Made by a program: the position numbers and the translations under genes
Part shown: in pieces, positions 4,490 through 11,924 of the stretch
Numbering within the stretch: the first letter of the stretch is position 1
How the letters are laid out: the number at the start of each line of letters is the position of its first letter
DNA from: Candidatus Saccharimonadota bacterium
Lineage (GTDB): Bacteria; Patescibacteriota; Saccharimonadia; Saccharimonadales; UBA10212
Reading direction: 5' to 3'
DNA: 28,907 bases
Assembly: GCA_043731125.1 (NCBI GenBank)
Contig: JAYTJL010000038.1
Location: 1-28,907, forward strand
The notes under the pieces: model-generated
Told to the model about the DNA's origin: nothing
The model's input: only the letters and a program-made list of their open reading frames with translations
The model's database searches: none

Positions 4490-4561
4490 GGGGGTTTTTG
4501 TTGGCCTCGCTTCAATACTACCAGATTGTTATTAATAAGATTAGTGCGGTATAATCATAAC

Positions 4562-4879
4562 ATGTCTACCAATAGAAAAGAAACCAGAAAATATGCCGAC
4601 CGTAGGGAGTATTTAAAGTTGGCTGTGGCGCGGCGACGCAAATGTCTAAAGTTAAGAGCAGTTGAATGCTGCGGGGGAAAGTGTCAAATATGTGGCTACA
4701 GCAAACACCCTGCAGTGCTGGACTTTCATCATATTGACCCAGCTTCAAAGAGTTTTGGGATAAGTTCTGGGGGGTATTCTAGGTCTTGGAGCAGCATTGA
4801 AGAAGAGATAAAAAAATGCATTTTAGTGTGCCCAAATTGCCGTAGAGAAATAGAACTAAGGATCATTGATATAAGTTAA
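4562..4879 (+). CDS. Small free-standing HNH-type endonuclease with zinc-finger (105 aa)
   Basis: CQICGY..LDFHH..EEIKKCILVCPNC; ATG 4562 lies 6 nt after TATAAT (4550-4555); the ORF-track start at 4475 overlaps the divergent ABC gene. Confidence 0.75.
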   Translation: MSTNRKETRKYADRREYLKLAVARRRKCLKLRAVECCGGKCQICGYSKHPAVLDFHHIDPASKSFGISSGGYSRSWSSIEEEIKKCILVCPNCRREIELRIIDIS

Positions 4880-4892
4880 GCCGCATAAGCGT

Positions 4893-4922
4893 TTGACGTG
4901 TATCCGTAATTACCCCTATAAT
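4893..4922 (+). promoter_or_regulatory. Sigma70-type promoter driving leader plus tRNA-Asn
   Basis: TTGACG (4893-4898), 18 nt, TATAAT (4917-4922). Confidence 0.75.
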
Positions 4923-5083
4923 CAATCAGTTGTCATGTGCACATTACAATTTGGTTGATATTTCTCTGGCAGTATGGTCAGTCTAGTGCGCTCCTCGGGA
5001 TGAGCAGCCCGACAAAATGTATTCCATTTTGCCGGCGCGACGTGCAAACCCCGAAGGGGTGTCTCATAAGGCGAAGCCGTTAT

Positions 5084-5394
5084 TCCGGGGTAGCTCAGCG
5101 GTAGAGCGGGTGGCTGTCGTTGGCAGCCTATCTCAAGTAATTAGATAGTGAAAACGGGGTGAATTGCAGGAAATCTAAGTCCGCACGTAGTGTCGGATAT
5201 GACAATCTGCAGCCAAGCCGAAGTTAGGTTAATAGACATCGGAAGGTTCAGAGACTAGAGAGTGAGCCTAACAATAATCTCTCAATAGCGCCCTGGTCGC
5301 ACTCAGTGCGATATGAAATAGTCCACACCACTATGAAAATAGAGGGCAAAGTGTAACCACTAGGTCGCTGGTTCGAATCCAGTCCCCGGAGCCA
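5084..5394 (+). tRNA. trnN: tRNA-Asn(GTT) interrupted by a group I intron; exons 5084-5117 and 5354-5394
   Basis: Joined exons fold TCCGGGG/CCCCGGA acceptor, GCTC/GAGC D arm, GGTGG-CTGT^TAA-CCACT anticodon arm, GCTGG-TTCGAAT-CCAGT T arm, discriminator G, encoded CCA. Confidence 0.93.
5118..5353 (+). ncRNA. Self-splicing group I intron (236 nt, no ORF) at tRNA position 35/36; has a P7.1-like insert (subgroup IA-like)
   Basis: P1 GGCTGT/GCAGCC with U5117.G5123 wobble; terminal G5353; P GAATTGCAGGAAA 5161-5173, Q AATCTGCAGCCAAG 5204-5217, R GTTCAGAGACTAG 5246-5258, S GAAATAGTCC 5315-5324; P3 CGGGGTG/CGCCCTG; P8 TCGCAC/GTGCGA; P9 CTAT-GAAA-ATAG. Confidence 0.92.
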
Positions 5395-5395
5395 G

Positions 5396-5418
5396 AGAAA
5401 TATTAATCAATCCAAGCT
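5396..5418 (+). repeat. Direct repeat copy 1 (att-like), immediately after tRNA-Asn CCA
   Basis: AGAAATATTAATCAATCCAAGCT; 22/23 identical to 9617-9639. Confidence 0.85.
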
Positions 5419-5459
5419 GCAATGAAAGAACCGTCTGAAGAGGCGGTTTTTTCATTGCA
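5418..5459 (+). terminator. Long hairpin downstream of tRNA-Asn (probable intrinsic terminator)
   Basis: TGCAATGAAAGAACCGTC pairs with GGCGGTTTTTTCATTGCA using two G-U pairs; the T-run follows the GC core. Confidence 0.7.
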
Positions 5460-5568
5460 CCCCTGCAACCCAGTTCTATCAAAGTCACTCCTGTCCCTTG
5501 TGTGAGCTATTCGAACTAGGGTTACAACTTGGGTTTGTATACTGTAGAAAGTGGTGTTTAATAAGATT

Positions 5569-6228
5569 ATGAATAACAAAAGTACATTTTTAACGACAGC
5601 CAGGGCTACAGGTCTACTTTATCTGGGCTTGGCAATAACCGGGATAATATCTTATGCAGTTATACGAAGCCAGATATTTGTAGATGACAACCCAGCAGAG
5701 ACGTTGAATAATTTAGTAAATAAAGAAATGCTTTCTCGAATCGGTATTGCTGGGGAACTCGCCCTGGTTTTGTTCCAGGCGTTGACTGCACTATGGTTTT
5801 ATAAGCTGTTTAAAAAGATTGATTCTTTTGCAGCTGTTACACTAACAGTTTTTGGAATAATTAATGCAGTGGCGATACTCGTTGCATCTGCATTCTGGCT
5901 GAGCGCTCAAACTACTGCAGGTTTTGGTGGTTCTGCTAATAATGTCTATAACTTGTTTCAAATCCACGACCAGATTTGGGTAGTATCTGCCGTATTTTTT
6001 GGTCTTTGGCTAATTCCAATGGGATATCTTGCAAAAAAGGCTAAAATGCCAAGTGCTCTTGCGGCCTTCTTGATATACGGAGGTATTTTGTATGTATTGT
6101 CGGCTTTTTTAATGGTATTACTACCAGATCAGAGCGACATAACAGATACGATAACAATTCCAGCTACAATTGGTGAGTTCTGGATAATTGGTTACTTGCT
6201 ATTTAAAAAACCAAAAATATCAACGTAG
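5569..6228 (+). CDS. DUF4386-like multi-pass membrane protein
   Basis: TARATGLLYLGLAI, LFYKLFK..D...A, VFFGLWLIPMGYL, IPATIGEFWIIGYLLFK; alternative GTG start at 5551. Confidence 0.75.
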   Translation: MNNKSTFLTTARATGLLYLGLAITGIISYAVIRSQIFVDDNPAETLNNLVNKEMLSRIGIAGELALVLFQALTALWFYKLFKKIDSFAAVTLTVFGIINAVAILVASAFWLSAQTTAGFGGSANNVYNLFQIHDQIWVVSAVFFGLWLIPMGYLAKKAKMPSALAAFLIYGGILYVLSAFLMVLLPDQSDITDTITIPATIGEFWIIGYLLFKKPKIST

Positions 6229-6337
6229 TATAGCTGTGTGTTACCAACTTGAATTAAATTAACTGCTGTTATTGGGTGCGGTTATGTAAACTACCAAAAA
6301 CTAGGAGGCGCTCTAGTCGACTATTGGAAAAACCTGC

Positions 6338-6362
6338 TATAATATGTAAGGTTAACTATACA
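6338..6362 (+). promoter_or_regulatory. Extended -10 (TGcTATAAT) followed by an imperfect 18-bp palindrome (candidate operator)
   Basis: TATAAT 6338-6343; TGTAAGGTTAACTATACA 6345-6362 matches its reverse complement at 14/18. Confidence 0.45.
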
Positions 6363-6366
6363 CTAT

Positions 6367-6591
6367 ATGTTTATAAAAGATAAAGATCACACAGTGGTGA
6401 ACACGGTACGCGAAGCACGTACCACTTTAAAGATGACCCAAGACGACCTAGCTGAGAAGGTTCAAGCTACAAGACAGACAATTATTGCTATAGAAAAGGG
6501 TAATTACGTGCCAAGCGTGCTACTAGCGCTTAGAATTGCCGTTATACTAGACAAGAAGGTGGAGGAAATCTTTAGTTATGAAAAAATATAA
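6367..6591 (+). CDS. XRE-family helix-turn-helix transcriptional regulator
   Basis: MTQDDLAEKVQATRQTIIAIEKGNYVPSVLLALRIA..VEEIF. Confidence 0.92.
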   Translation: MFIKDKDHTVVNTVREARTTLKMTQDDLAEKVQATRQTIIAIEKGNYVPSVLLALRIAVILDKKVEEIFSYEKI

Positions 6592-6943
6592 GCAACTACT
6601 CGATATCATTCTACTTCTGGGTCTAGGGACTATTGCGCTACTAGCAATTGCTCCGAAGACTTTTGTTATGCCTTCCAGCCTGCAGATGTTAATACTAGCC
6701 TGCGTGCTTGGACTCATAGCTACCTTCTTAGTATTACTTTGGCGTGAACAACCAGGCGACGAAAGAGAAATGCACAACCAAGCTATTGCTAGTCGCTCGG
6801 CATATATAGTTGGCTCACTTGTGTTAATTGTCGCGCTTGTGATTCAAAGTCTGAGGCACGAACTTGACGGCTTTATACCGATAGCTCTATTAGCTATGAT
6901 AGCAACAAAAATAATTGTTCAGAGAAGCAAGGACGGTAAGTAA
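6578..6943 (+). CDS. Small membrane protein (DUF2178-like) coupled to the XRE gene
   Basis: 4 hydrophobic segments with a DERE motif (PGDEREMH..ASRSAY); 14-nt overlap with the HTH gene, the typical XRE-membrane pair. Confidence 0.65.
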   Translation: MKKYKQLLDIILLLGLGTIALLAIAPKTFVMPSSLQMLILACVLGLIATFLVLLWREQPGDEREMHNQAIASRSAYIVGSLVLIVALVIQSLRHELDGFIPIALLAMIATKIIVQRSKDGK

Positions 6944-6957
6944 AAAGTAAAGTCAAC

Positions 6958-6987
6958 TTGACACTACTAATACACTTTAACTATACT
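6958..6987 (+). promoter_or_regulatory. Sigma70-type promoter for the Trx-DipZ-Grx operon
   Basis: TTGACA (6958-6963), 18 nt, TATACT (6982-6987); the -35 overlaps the inverted repeat GTCAA-C-TTGAC. Confidence 0.7.
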
Positions 6988-7023
6988 AGATACGTACACT
7001 AAATAACGTAAATGAGGGAAATC

Positions 7024-7512
7024 ATGAACAAAAAATTATTAATAATCGCGAGCATCGTTGCTGGGCTGTTTTTAGTAGGGGGTGTATTAGCATATTCAAG
7101 TGACCAAAGTAAGAAGAAAGATGCCGAACATGCTGCAATGATGAAAAAAGAAGGAGCAGCAGCCATGGAAAAAGAGAAAATGGCAAAAAATGGTGATGCA
7201 ATGTCAGTTAAGGGTAGCTACACGGCATATGATCAGAGTAAGCTGGCTAATGCCGAAAAAGGTGATGTAGTAATCTTCTTTCATGCTGGATGGTGTCCTA
7301 AGTGCCAAGAGTCCGATAAGAATTTCAATGCCAGTGCAACCCCAGACGGCTTAACGCTTCTAAAAATTGACTACGATAATTCTACCGAGCTAAAGCAAAA
7401 GTATGGCGTCACTATACAGCACACATATGTACAGGTCGACAAAAATGGCAACGAAATAAAGCAATGGAGCGGTAGCTACACATACGACGACTTGAAAAGC
7501 CAAATTAACTAA
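7024..7512 (+). CDS. Membrane-anchored extracytoplasmic thioredoxin
   Basis: N-terminal TM; FFHAGWCPKC; YGVTIQHT (cis-Pro-equivalent loop); GAGGG upstream of ATG 7024 (alternative start 7012). Confidence 0.85.
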   Translation: MNKKLLIIASIVAGLFLVGGVLAYSSDQSKKKDAEHAAMMKKEGAAAMEKEKMAKNGDAMSVKGSYTAYDQSKLANAEKGDVVIFFHAGWCPKCQESDKNFNASATPDGLTLLKIDYDNSTELKQKYGVTIQHTYVQVDKNGNEIKQWSGSYTYDDLKSQIN

Positions 7513-7532
7513 AGTACTGAGAAAGTAACCCG

Positions 7533-9257
7533 ATGTTTTTACTGTTTTCATCGTTTCTAGCTGGCATGCTGACTTCGTTAGCACCCTGTATGATCACGCT
7601 CTTGCCAGTTATTGTCGGGAACTCTTTAGTTCCTGACGGTGACGATAAGCTTGATCGTAAGAAACCGTATATTATTGCGGCGAGCTTGGCGGTGTCAGTA
7701 GTAATCTTTACGGTCATTCTAAAAGCATCGACTGTATTAATCGGAGTCGATCCTAAAATATGGCTCTATATCTCGGGCGGAATTGTTGTCATTCTTGGAA
7801 TAAGCATGCTATTCCCGAATCTTTGGGCAAAGATCAGTGCAAGACTGGGTTTTGAGCATAGTTCCAATAAGCTACTCGCAAGCGCCAACAAGCGCTCTGG
7901 CCTATGGGGACAGATCCTTACTGGTGCAGCGTTGGGACCAGTCTTTGCAAGCTGTAGCCCAGTCTATGCGCTGGTGCTGGCAACAGTCCTACCGATAAAT
8001 ATTGCACTCGGGATGGTTTACATTGTTGCCTTTGCCCTAGGGCTTGGACTTGCGCTTCTTTTGATTGCACTTGGTGGTCAACGAATTGTTAAACGACTCG
8101 GGTGGGCAGTTAACCCATACGGCTGGTTTAGGCGCGCGTTGGCAGTACTCCTCATAATTGTTGGCTTGATGATCATTGGCGGCTATGACAAGAAGTTTCA
8201 AACTTGGGTTATAGAGACGCTGCCTTTTGATGTAACCGATATAGAAGAAAGATTAATCCCAAAAAGCGAATCATCGTCAGGTTCTAAGAGTAGAGGCAGC
8301 AGTAGTATGGCAAAGTTCAATATAGATAATCCATATCAAGCTCCAGAGATTCACAATATTCAAAGCTGGATAAATAGCGATCCTCAGACACTCGAAAAGC
8401 TGAATGGCAAAGTAGTACTCATAGATTTCTGGACGTATTCTTGTATTAACTGCAAGCGAACTCAACCCTACTTAAACGCCTGGCACGATAAATACAATGA
8501 TGATGGGCTGGTTATACTTGGTATCCACGCTCCCGAGTTTGCATTTGAAAAAGTAACTAAGAACGTAGAAGATGCCGTCAAAGAAGCCAAGATTAAATAC
8601 CCTGTCGGACTAGATAATGACTTCTCGACTTGGCGAGCGTATGATAACCAGTTCTGGCCTGCAAAGTATCTGATAGATAAAGACGGTCAAGTTCGTTACA
8701 CGCACTTTGGCGAGGGTGAGTACGCAGAAACTGAACAGACTATACAGGTGTTGTTAAAAGAATCTGGTCAGAATGTAAGCGACAATATTGAGATAGAACG
8801 AAGTTCAACCTCATCAGTGCGCGGACAAACCCCAGAAACATATCTTGGTTTTGAACGCGCCGAACGGTTTGCTAATGCCGATCAATTTATAGCCAATAAA
8901 CCAGTAGACTATGTGCTTATGGATAGCCTCAAAGAACACGAATGGTCTATTGGCGGCCAATGGCAAATTAACGATGAATCAAGTCAAAGCCTTGCAGCGG
9001 GCACCAAGCTCAACATTAATTTCTCAGCAAAGGAAGTATATCTAGTTATGAGTGGCCCGCCTGGAGCACTGGTTGGAGTATCAGCTGAGGGATTAGATAA
9101 GCCTGGTGGAGCGGACGTCAACGCGCAGGACAAAGTAAGAATTAACGGGGCACGACTGTATAAAATTGTAAATGCCGATAAATATTTAACTAATAAGAAA
9201 CTAACTTTAACATTTCCAGCTGGCGTTACCATTAACGCATTTACATTTGGTGGTTAA
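7533..9257 (+). CDS. dipZ: DipZ-type fusion: CcdA TM domain + TlpA thioredoxin + DipZ C-terminal domain
   Basis: SLAPCMITLLP and FASCSPVY (CcdA cysteines); LIDFWTYSCINC; HAPEFAFEK; TPETYLG; NAFTFG end. Confidence 0.9.
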   Translation: MFLLFSSFLAGMLTSLAPCMITLLPVIVGNSLVPDGDDKLDRKKPYIIAASLAVSVVIFTVILKASTVLIGVDPKIWLYISGGIVVILGISMLFPNLWAKISARLGFEHSSNKLLASANKRSGLWGQILTGAALGPVFASCSPVYALVLATVLPINIALGMVYIVAFALGLGLALLLIALGGQRIVKRLGWAVNPYGWFRRALAVLLIIVGLMIIGGYDKKFQTWVIETLPFDVTDIEERLIPKSESSSGSKSRGSSSMAKFNIDNPYQAPEIHNIQSWINSDPQTLEKLNGKVVLIDFWTYSCINCKRTQPYLNAWHDKYNDDGLVILGIHAPEFAFEKVTKNVEDAVKEAKIKYPVGLDNDFSTWRAYDNQFWPAKYLIDKDGQVRYTHFGEGEYAETEQTIQVLLKESGQNVSDNIEIERSSTSSVRGQTPETYLGFERAERFANADQFIANKPVDYVLMDSLKEHEWSIGGQWQINDESSQSLAAGTKLNINFSAKEVYLVMSGPPGALVGVSAEGLDKPGGADVNAQDKVRINGARLYKIVNADKYLTNKKLTLTFPAGVTINAFTFGG

Positions 9258-9277
9258 TAAACTCATAAGGAGGTCCA

Positions 9278-9526
9278 ATGGATATAACAATATACTCAAC
9301 AACAACCTGCGCCTTTTGCCACGTATTGACTGCCTGGCTTGATAAAGAGAAGATACCCTACACCAAAAAAAATACCGACGAGGATGAATCGGCATTAGCC
9401 GATTTTATGATTGTTAATGACGGGAATCTAGGAGTTCCGTTTACGGTCATAAAAGACGGAAACGGCAATGAGACTAAAATTCTTGGTTTCGACCAAGCAA
9501 AATTCAAACAAGTTCTTGGTATCTAG
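9278..9526 (+). CDS. Glutaredoxin-like (NrdH/YruB-type) redoxin
   Basis: IYSTTTCAFC, GVPFTVI, ILGFD; SD AAGGAGG. Confidence 0.85.
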   Translation: MDITIYSTTTCAFCHVLTAWLDKEKIPYTKKNTDEDESALADFMIVNDGNLGVPFTVIKDGNGNETKILGFDQAKFKQVLGI

Positions 9527-9616
9527 TCACGACAATTAATAAGTGTAGCCTAGCATAAAGCGAACCTAAACCAGGTGGTTGGGATAATTGGTTGGAATCT
9601 AGCTGCGGGGGCCCGC

Positions 9617-9639
9617 AGAAATATTAATCATTCCAAGCT
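9617..9639 (+). repeat. Direct repeat copy 2 (att-like)
   Basis: AGAAATATTAATCATTCCAAGCT; directly abuts the TATACT -10 of uppP. Confidence 0.85.
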
Positions 9640-11743: not shown

Positions 11744-11924
11744 ATGCTGGAACCCCGTGTGAATCGGGGACTGTGCCGCAACGGTAAAAACCATGAGAAA
11801 CCCCTCCGCGGTTTCTCATCGCGCCGGGAGAATGAAATACATTTTCTCGGGCTGCTCATCCGGGTATAAAGATGAGCAAGTTGAAGTCCGATACAGCAAC
11901 ACGTAAACTAACTCCCGTGCAGGA
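11744..11924 (+). ncRNA. Cobalamin (B12) riboswitch, variant with a three-hairpin P6 extension
   Basis: TGCTG-GAA-CCCC-GTGTGAATC-GGGG-A-CTG-TGCCG-CAA-CGGTAA ... AAG-TCCG-ATA-CAGCA four-way junction; downstream hairpin TCC-CGTGCA-GGA can kiss L5 TGCCG. Confidence 0.78.

Follow-up and report, generated by a model that had tools for sequence, protein, structure and literature searches.

Does an HNH gene that stands directly before an intron-split tRNA gene form a homing unit with that intron, and if so, is its nuclease still able to cut? This question is raised by a stretch of 28,907 nucleotides from a Candidatus Saccharimonadota bacterium (hereafter the window), in which a small HNH gene precedes a tRNA-Asn gene that is interrupted by a group I intron. 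How a self-splicing intron and a homing endonuclease become united in one mobile element is known from few cases, in phages. Here, we describe the locus, the family to which the HNH protein belongs, and related genomes with and without the intron.

A free-standing HNH gene precedes an intron-split tRNA-Asn gene

We identified the following features at the locus.

4526..4555, + strand: promoter-like site of the HNH gene, TTGTTA, 18 nt, TATAAT (10 of 12 consensus matches; putative function)
4562..4879, + strand: free-standing HNH endonuclease gene, 105 aa plus stop (homology, profile matches, AF2 model)
4841..4843, + strand: codon CGT, Arg94, in place of the invariant His after the second CxxC (family alignment)
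4893..4922, + strand: promoter-like site of tRNA-Asn, TTGACG, 18 nt, TATAAT (11 of 12 consensus matches)
5084..5117, + strand: 5' exon of tRNA-Asn(GUU); its last bases, CUGU, reach anticodon nt 35 (100% identity with the intron-less allele of G001, a genome of the same genus)
5118..5353, + strand: ORF-less group I intron, 236 nt (RF00028, P1 pairing, terminal G5353)
5354..5394, + strand: 3' exon of tRNA-Asn, beginning with UAA and ending in an encoded CCA (sequence, comparison with G001)

A reading made earlier from the sequence alone had described a 105-aa HNH ORF about 200 nt before the host gene of a group I intron that lacks an ORF. This description was borne out. The ORF lies on the + strand downstream of a divergently transcribed ABC-transporter pair (coding span 4562-4876, stop codon 4877-4879), 205 nt separate its stop codon from the start of tRNA-Asn, and Rfam RF00028 matches at 5082-5345 with 73.7 bits against a cut-off of 50.

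Profile searches matched the ORF to PHROG 2255 'HNH endonuclease' (E=1.8e-26) and to PHROG 3106 (E=1.2e-21). Pfam PF01844 scored 19.5 bits, slightly under its cut-off of 21.4, and an NCBIfam search with the ORF returned zero family matches. With the family profile, matches were obtained to a group II intron protein, in its En domain (6ME0, E=1.3e-5), and to McrA, in its C-terminal motif. An AlphaFold (AF2) model built on 31 relatives (pLDDT 88.8) consists of a long N-terminal helix (residues 11-36), strands at 54-57 and 86-89, and a helix at 91-98. When this model was compared with known structures using Foldseek, nearly all matches were HNH nucleases, but every one was weak: the best were Gme HNH 4H9D, Cas9 HNH domains, McrA and Cap5 (all E>0.1), and no match to the PDB reached E<=0.001.

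The protein has a basic helix at the N terminus, a zinc knuckle of the form CxxC...CxxC and an HH pair at 56-57. The basic helix (11-36) is conserved in the family. Neither the knuckle cysteines (C41, C44, C90 and C93) nor the H56-H57 pair varies in the family, and the window keeps them all; the pair, the candidate general base, is located at the end of the first strand. The modelled protein is consistent with a beta-beta-alpha fold bearing a CxxC...CxxC zinc knuckle, and these features identify the predicted product as a member of the HNH / His-Me finger family.

The host gene, tRNA-Asn(GUU), spans 5084-5394. Its intron lies between anticodon nt 35 and 36, at the junction CUGU/UAA. In P1, GGCUGU pairs with GCAGCC, which places U5117.G5123 at the 5' splice site; the P1 loop is 5 nt long, the internal guide GCAGCC occupies 5123-5128, and the last intron base is G5353. 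A catalytic core, a U.G pair at the 5' splice site and a terminal G are the features expected of a group I intron, as predicted here. We placed the junction at CUGU/UAA on the strength of the P1 pairing, the intron-less allele of the sister species (GGCTGT/TAACCA), the terminal G in 59 relatives and a separate tRNA-Thr(UGU) in the genome.

The last of these points matters because ARAGORN, which called zero tRNAs in the window under default settings, called tRNA-Thr(tgt) when introns were allowed. This call results from the TGT repeated at both junctions. We rejected it in favour of Asn, given the P1 pairing, the G001 allele, the separate tRNA-Thr(UGU) and the lack of any other tRNA-Asn: of the 39 tRNAs found in this genome, an 81%-complete assembly, one is a tRNA-Asn. 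Default tRNA finders overlook this gene, which can therefore be falsely scored as missing.

Both genes have promoter-like sites. The -10 box of the HNH gene is 6 nt from the ATG, suggesting that the HNH mRNA is probably leaderless, and the same TATAAT-then-ATG arrangement recurs in the orthologs L004 and L030. The promoter-like site of tRNA-Asn is conserved in G001, which has neither HNH nor intron, and in G002, the genome with the closest ortholog. The 205-nt spacer matched no named RNA when 4850-5480 was compared with Rfam at relaxed thresholds. Judged by these sequence features, the HNH gene in the Saccharimonadia lineage of this organism stands upstream of the tRNA behind a promoter-like site of its own, and the intron is ORF-less.

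The HNH family occurs in and beside tRNA-Asn genes

We next considered where relatives of the HNH gene are found. A word-indexed search returned 262 matches, and species-representative genomes hold at least 439 relatives, almost all in CPR lineages, where identity to the window HNH ranges from 83 to 49%. Locus classes were assigned for the best 80 species-level loci by intron-aware tRNA detection and Rfam. Seventy-five of these 80 lie in or beside a tRNA-Asn(GUU) gene. At 58, the HNH ORF is inside a tRNA-Asn(GUU) intron of ~500-700 nt, on the sense strand; at nine, ORF and tRNA share a strand, with the ORF 27-69 nt upstream and an ORF-less intron of 174-236 nt in the tRNA. Three more loci have the HNH gene beside an intron-bearing tRNA-Asn in another orientation, and at five it adjoins an intron-less tRNA-Asn. 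The remaining five loci are unclassified, four of them at contig ends. The layout of the window recurs in L004, L030, L031, L034, L035, L036, L039, L050, L068, L073 and G083.

Since the genomes are roughly 0.5-1.3 Mb in size, adjacency to tRNA-Asn at 75 of 80 loci is far above chance. A location inside the intron (58 of 80) or beside tRNA-Asn (17 more) is that expected of a homing gene, and predicted HNH endonucleases inside the group I intron of tRNA-Asn are widespread among CPR bacteria.

The intron-bearing hosts of close homologs are all tRNA-Asn genes with the junction CUGU/UAA, and the terminal intron base is G in 59 of 59 ORF-bearing introns. These introns (median length 554 nt) resemble the ORF-less intron, enlarged by an insert that occupies the P1 loop. 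Between the 5' splice site and the start of the ORF lie a median of 33 nt, and the guide GCAG is close to the ORF end in 57 of the 59. From the guide to the 3' splice site, the median distance is 231 nt, and the window has the same spacing.

The anticodon stems of the host tRNAs differ widely, so that the recognition site cannot be read from sequence. Odd D-arms were seen in several intron-less tRNA-Asn genes next to HNH genes (L007, L037, L069, L032), a small sample. D-arms vary in intron-bearing tRNA-Asn genes too, and we make no claim that they mark resistant target sites.

HNH and intron co-occur in related genomes

A survey of HNH genes against intron-plus and intron-minus tRNAs had been proposed as a check of the pairing. 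Among 41 genomes sampled from the order, five carry the tRNA-Asn intron: G000, G002, G008, G019 and G037. All five of these genomes have a close HNH homolog, compared with one of the 36 intron-less genomes; the sampled genomes are related to one another, and these counts are descriptive, not a formal test. The one exception, G003, has its HNH gene directly upstream of an intron-less tRNA-Asn, and in G008 the HNH gene is on a different contig from the intron-bearing tRNA-Asn. The distribution is patchy, with an HNH match in 14 of the 41 genomes.

We also examined 150 genomes drawn evenly from the phylum. Strong HNH matches were present in 15, and 13 of these were inside or beside a tRNA-Asn intron, 11 of them intronic. 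G083 has the same layout as the window, and G120 and G130 carry the HNH gene directly upstream of an intron-less tRNA-Asn. In G117, one HNH copy is intronic and another lies 35 nt upstream of the tRNA that contains this intron. Seven genomes (G150, G114, G141, G161, G093, G124 and G052) have an ORF-less tRNA-Asn intron and no family member at E<=1e-10. The intron can thus exist without the HNH protein, and a required role of this protein in splicing appears unlikely.

Two close relatives are of particular use. G002 has the layout of the window: ABC transporter, HNH gene (75% identity, His94 intact) and intron-bearing tRNA. G001 has no intron and no HNH gene, and its exons are 100% and 98% identical to those of the window. 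The similarity extends upstream, at 93% identity, starting at the position of the HNH stop codon, and guaB, on the other strand, occupies the place of the HNH gene. Comparison of G001 with the window therefore reveals a presence/absence pattern with an intact empty site, as expected of a homing element. Sporadic distribution together with an intact empty site would characterize a homing gene. The promoter and leader between HNH and tRNA are 93% like those of G001 and much less like those of G002, which is a poor fit to a single co-conversion of HNH gene and intron from a G002-like donor.

Phage relatives adjoin intron-less tRNA-Asn genes

The core of the HNH protein matches 299 phage records, and the best phage relatives are 47-58% identical to the window HNH. 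We inspected the gene neighbourhoods of ten distinct phages. In six of the ten, the HNH gene is directly beside an intron-less tRNA-Asn(GTT) in a tRNA cluster. It is upstream of tRNA-Asn on the same strand in Vibrio phage VH1_2019, Xanthomonas XbC2, Erwinia Kaldavass and Synechococcus S-H38, and downstream in Klebsiella Muenster and Cronobacter CR3. FelixO1, DAC15 and Lak-B6 have it among other tRNAs, and in Pseudomonas COT4 no tRNA is near the HNH gene.

The occurrence of HNH genes beside intron-less tRNA-Asn genes in both CPR genomes and phages indicates that the nuclease is tied to the tRNA-Asn gene and that the intron is an optional partner. Carriers whose tRNA-Asn is intron-less further imply that the intron is unnecessary for protection of the carrier. 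The sequence-only reading had held that HNH homologs found next to tRNAs regardless of intron status, or at unrelated loci, would count against a homing pair, together with a restored enzyme that has no preference for the exon-junction sequence. Part of this was seen, as HNH genes beside intron-less tRNA-Asn in CPR genomes and phages alike; unrelated loci are not the rule, with 75 of 80 at tRNA-Asn. We read the intron-less cases as broadening the model to include intron-less homing, not as overturning it.

The window protein departs from its family at a predicted metal ligand

The sequence-only reading had also noted the motif CPNCRREIE near the end of the protein and concluded that its distal His was lost. 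The motif was read correctly, but the missing residue is the proximal His (H94R). At the '+4' position, most homologs have E, not H; E is the family norm there, and the distal His is accordingly not the one lost. The family motif reads CxNC-H-REIE, compared with CPNC-R-REIE in the window, and C-x-x-C-H-[RKM]-E is kept in all 120 homologs listed. When 200 non-identical family sequences were aligned, 30 columns were conserved at >=95%. The window keeps 29 of these 30, with H94R as the sole departure. His occupies position 94 in 199 of the 200 sequences, and the window alone deviates. Its codon 94 is CGT, compared with CAC in the closest ortholog, G002.

His94 is located at the start of a helix, immediately after the second CxxC. 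Its column aligns with CPNC-H of McrA (6GHC) and with ANC-H in the En domain of a group II intron (6ME0). The catalytic metal of zinc-knuckle HNH enzymes is bound by the residue following the second CxxC, and we predict His94 to be such a ligand. The window copy has Arg94 where a metal-binding His or Asn is expected. It is a family HNH protein from which a defining catalytic residue is missing, and Arg at the predicted ligand position means that the enzyme is probably catalytically dead. The protein is not broadly decayed, as judged by one substitution at an otherwise family-invariant residue. That the rest is intact suggests an early step in decay following fixation of the homing element, and the nuclease was probably inactivated recently in this genome. 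Synonymous sites are saturated between the window and its G002 and L030 orthologs, which makes dN/dS unusable for these comparisons.

A collaborative homing pair with a disabled nuclease is the likely explanation

We consider it likely that the window carries a free-standing HNH homing endonuclease and an ORF-less intron that form a trans, or 'collaborative', homing pair targeting tRNA-Asn(GUU), with a nuclease that in this genome is probably inactivated. A free-standing endonuclease gene beside an intron without a working ORF is the layout of such a pair. The earlier suggestion of a collaborative-homing pair or its decayed relic gains support from the intronic homologs at the same site, the co-occurrence of HNH and intron, the empty site in G001 and the H94R substitution.

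In its active form, the nuclease would nick or cut the intron-less tRNA-Asn genes of related cells. Its target would be the insertion site of the intron, and the intron would be protective; in other genomes, the same family provides the ORF of this intron. Recombinational repair from the donor would then copy the intron and the neighbouring HNH gene into the broken gene. The donor gene would be spared either because the intron interrupts the site or because the site differs in intron-less carriers. The HNH gene and the intron would in this way move together, and R94 would be expected to abolish catalysis. The simplest account of the survey may be that the family occurs in three modes, intron-encoded, trans or collaborative, and intron-less homing, of which the window would represent the second.

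The pair could instead be a still-active trans-homing unit, either because the enzyme tolerates Arg94 or because H94R arose as an artefact of assembly or strain consensus in the metagenome-assembled genome. One of the 30 highly conserved columns is altered, the ORF is intact and has its own promoter-like site, and H94R amounts to a single A-to-G transition relative to the CAC of G002. These observations would suit an active enzyme, but His in 199 of 200 relatives argues for its necessity. We know of no His-Me finger nuclease in which Arg is a metal ligand at the position equivalent to 94, and we regard continued activity as rather unlikely. Loss of the catalytic His could also have been tolerated or even favoured had the protein been co-opted for a non-nuclease role, either as a maturase-like splicing helper or as a regulator of the tRNA-Asn gene or its promoter. 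The intron splits the only tRNA-Asn found, so splicing is essential; every intron-bearing genome of the order sample retains the HNH gene, G008 included, where it occupies a separate locus; and the binding and fold residues, among them the conserved basic helix 11-36, are all kept despite H94R. Such a role is nonetheless improbable when set against the seven genomes with an ORF-less tRNA-Asn intron and no family member at E<=1e-10, the conservation of catalytic residues across the family, the confinement of H94R to one species and the phage copies that adjoin intron-less genes. Moreover, we know of no HNH maturase. In its obligatory form, a maturase role was rejected on the grounds of the introns without HNH in those seven genomes and the family-wide catalytic residues.

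It is barely credible that the adjacency is incidental and the nuclease unrelated to the intron, for example phage-derived, part of a restriction or defence system, or at the edge of a tRNA-integrated island. The database names of homologs do include 'McrA' and 'HNH restriction endonuclease', and related HNH proteins are common in phages. Against this, 75 of 80 loci are in or beside tRNA-Asn, most of them inside the intron, the HNH gene flanks the tRNA at its 5' side and not at an attachment site, and there is one HNH copy per genome. Chance adjacency and the edge of an island or prophage were rejected, as the locus survey contradicts both and the HNH gene is 5' of the tRNA.

Free-standing and intronic forms may be stages of one pathway

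Free-standing and intronic HNH genes could be related in either direction. The HNH tree was built from 107 columns and is poorly resolved, and for this reason it does not settle the direction between the two forms. The window falls in a well-supported group (SH-aLRT 99) made up of six Saccharimonadia rows, all of them non-intronic, and the branches with good support require at least three changes of arrangement. In intronic copies, the conserved C-terminal 'G-I/V-T-Q-L-P' is encoded by guide and P2 sequence, and several free-standing copies retain a remnant of this guide-encoded C-terminus (ITSVP, TTKLP, FIELP, FAKLP). These remnants hint at escape from the intron, whereas the free-standing phage forms hint at the opposite direction. 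A search upstream of free-standing ORFs for a relic 5' exon, which would be a sign of exon duplication, found nothing above background.

Five states of the family were observed. In phages and some CPR genomes, the HNH gene stands alone next to an intron-less target; it stands alone next to an ORF-less intron in loci such as that of the window. Intronic and free-standing copies occur together in G117, and most CPR genomes of the survey have the HNH ORF within the P1 loop. Finally, there are ORF-less introns in genomes without an HNH gene. A tentative reading, which we hold to be possible but doubtful, is that these make up, in one HNH lineage, each of the states proposed for how a mobile group I intron is born and decays, that the free-standing, phage-like form is ancestral, and that the window represents the 'collaborative' stage, before invasion. 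Were that form indeed the ancestor, this would be the first cellular record, and the first in a tRNA gene, of a pre-adapted endonuclease invading an intron.

The interest for the mobile-intron field is that a single family supplies every stage of the proposed pathway. One nuclease family and one target gene offer many natural examples of each proposed stage, in cells and in phages, and the pathway is thereby testable through comparison and simple cleavage assays.

Comparison with known systems

Intron-split tRNA genes are frequent in phyla derived from metagenomes: 21 classes have been described, 17 of them new, and introns longer than ~400 bp may hold protein genes, as reported by Williams 2020 (bioRxiv 10.1101/2020.01.27.920355). 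The accessible text of that study gives no account of encoded proteins, of the HNH family or of free-standing arrangements. CPR genome papers touch on tRNA group I introns merely in passing (PMC8172020). In the literature searched, whose coverage was partial, we found no earlier description of the tRNA-Asn HNH family. Among endonucleases of bacterial tRNA group I introns, a partial literature search found only I-Ssp6803I described, whose gene lies within the group I intron that splits tRNA-fMet in Synechocystis (Bonocora and Shub 2001, cited in PMC3984707). I-Ssp6803I is a PD-(D/E)xK enzyme of a cyanobacterial tRNA-fMet gene, whereas the window family is HNH and associated with tRNA-Asn. To our knowledge, I-Ssp6803I has no free-standing relatives.

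Trans or collaborative homing and intron-less homing are both documented in phages (PMC2790892, PMC6083498, PMC3984707, PMC2330249). The endonucleases of phage tRNA clusters include T4 SegB, a GIY-YIG enzyme whose main site is the T2L tRNA-Asn gene, and F-TflI/II/IV of T5 (PMC2330249). The genes for SegB and the T5 enzymes sit between tRNA genes and target tRNA genes, leading to intron-less homing of the gene and its flanks (PMC2330249). The phage relatives of the window HNH share this position in phage tRNA clusters and adjoin tRNA-Asn. SegB belongs to the GIY-YIG class and the window family to the HNH class, and introns are absent from the SegB and T5 systems.

In phage T4, the free-standing HNH endonuclease MobE and an nrdB group I intron that carries the defunct I-TevIII constitute a case of trans homing (PMC2790892). 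The window resembles T4 in having a free-standing HNH gene near a group I intron without a working ORF, and in both cases the endonuclease is proposed to mobilise itself and the intron. The T4 system belongs to a phage, with a protein-coding host gene and a decayed intron ORF, whereas the window is part of a cellular genome, its host is a tRNA gene and the ORF is absent from the intron. The activity of MobE has been shown, whereas that of the window family is a prediction. Unlike in T4, intact copies of the window family reside inside the intron in other lineages.

A second precedent is cyanophage S-PM2, where the free-standing F-CphI lies beside an ORF-less psbA intron and the two engage in collaborative homing, which has been proposed as a step towards composite mobile introns (PMC6083498, PMC3984707). 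The catalytic motif of F-CphI is of the Endo VII type, its architecture differs, and a protein-coding phage gene serves as its host, in contrast to the HNH protein and tRNA host of the window. Compared with F-CphI, the window family is distinguished by the presence in nature of both the 'before' state, in which the gene is free-standing, and the 'after' state, in which the ORF is inside the intron.

Sequences flanking the tRNA-Asn gene

A structured repeat of ~75 nt forms an insertion that separates the tRNA-Asn promoter from the tRNA (window 4971-5080). Its predicted RNA fold has an energy of -41.8 kcal/mol (z = -2.8), and one of its hairpins differs among copies, with compensating changes. 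The repeat is absent from this promoter/tRNA position in G001, the same-genus genome lacking both the intron and the HNH gene, or in G002, which shares the layout of the window. The window's own genome (G000) carries four copies:

Copies of the ~75-nt repeat in G000
window 4971-5080, between tRNA-Asn promoter and tRNA
window 11793-11861, minus strand
G000:C36:140-220
G000:C19:4560-4632

Further copies occur at 86-90% identity in G003, which belongs to another genus. The repeat could represent either a mobile hairpin element of small size or a kind of RNA domain not described before.

The 3' flank of tRNA-Asn also differs between genomes. In G001 (L022, G001:C22), uppP, encoding undecaprenyl-diphosphatase, directly follows the tRNA, whereas in the window ~4.2 kb of other genes (5396-9639) lies between the two.

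Two HNH copies at one tRNA-Asn gene

A single tRNA-Asn gene in G117 (L113, G117:C1:289400-291100) is accompanied by two intact HNH copies, the first preceding the 5' exon by 35 nt, the second lying within the intron. The two are near neighbours of each other in the tree.

Group I introns in CPR tRNA genes

At least one group I intron match was present in 63 of the 151 sampled genomes, with many of the matches grouped in apparent rRNA operons. Several CPR tRNA genes besides tRNA-Asn are split by ORF-less group I introns:

ORF-less group I introns in other tRNA genes
tRNA-Phe (GAA): L117, L120, L123, L130, L137, L146
tRNA-Leu (CAA): L141, L142
tRNA-Met (CAU): L133, L111
tRNA-Arg (ACG): L148

The ORF-less tRNA-Asn introns of L125, L131 and L143 (G093, G124 and G052) are longer, at 246-305 nt. 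For L125 and L131, no guide sequence lies directly downstream of the 5' splice site, and their P1 loops may therefore contain remnants of a lost ORF.

HNH relatives in phages and a distant paralog in CPR genomes

The public records of three phages carrying HNH relatives beside tRNA-Asn are incomplete. The HNH ORF is unannotated in Vibrio phage VH1_2019 (L150) and Synechococcus phage S-H38 (L157), and the adjoining tRNA-Asn is unannotated in Erwinia phage Kaldavass (L152), where ARAGORN places it at L152:1516-1590.

The genomes below encode a more remote HNH paralog, at 34-42% identity, antisense to a tRNA with a CAU-type anticodon; ARAGORN calls this tRNA Met, or Thr in L011.

Genomes with the distant HNH paralog
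loci: L009 (G031), L011 (G033), L012 (G014), L013 (G034)
further genomes: G167, G075, G062, G186, G076, G088

This paralog falls within the ~600-nt intron span assigned by ARAGORN and adjoins the intron core. It would represent a second HNH-intron association in CPR tRNA genes, in antisense orientation.
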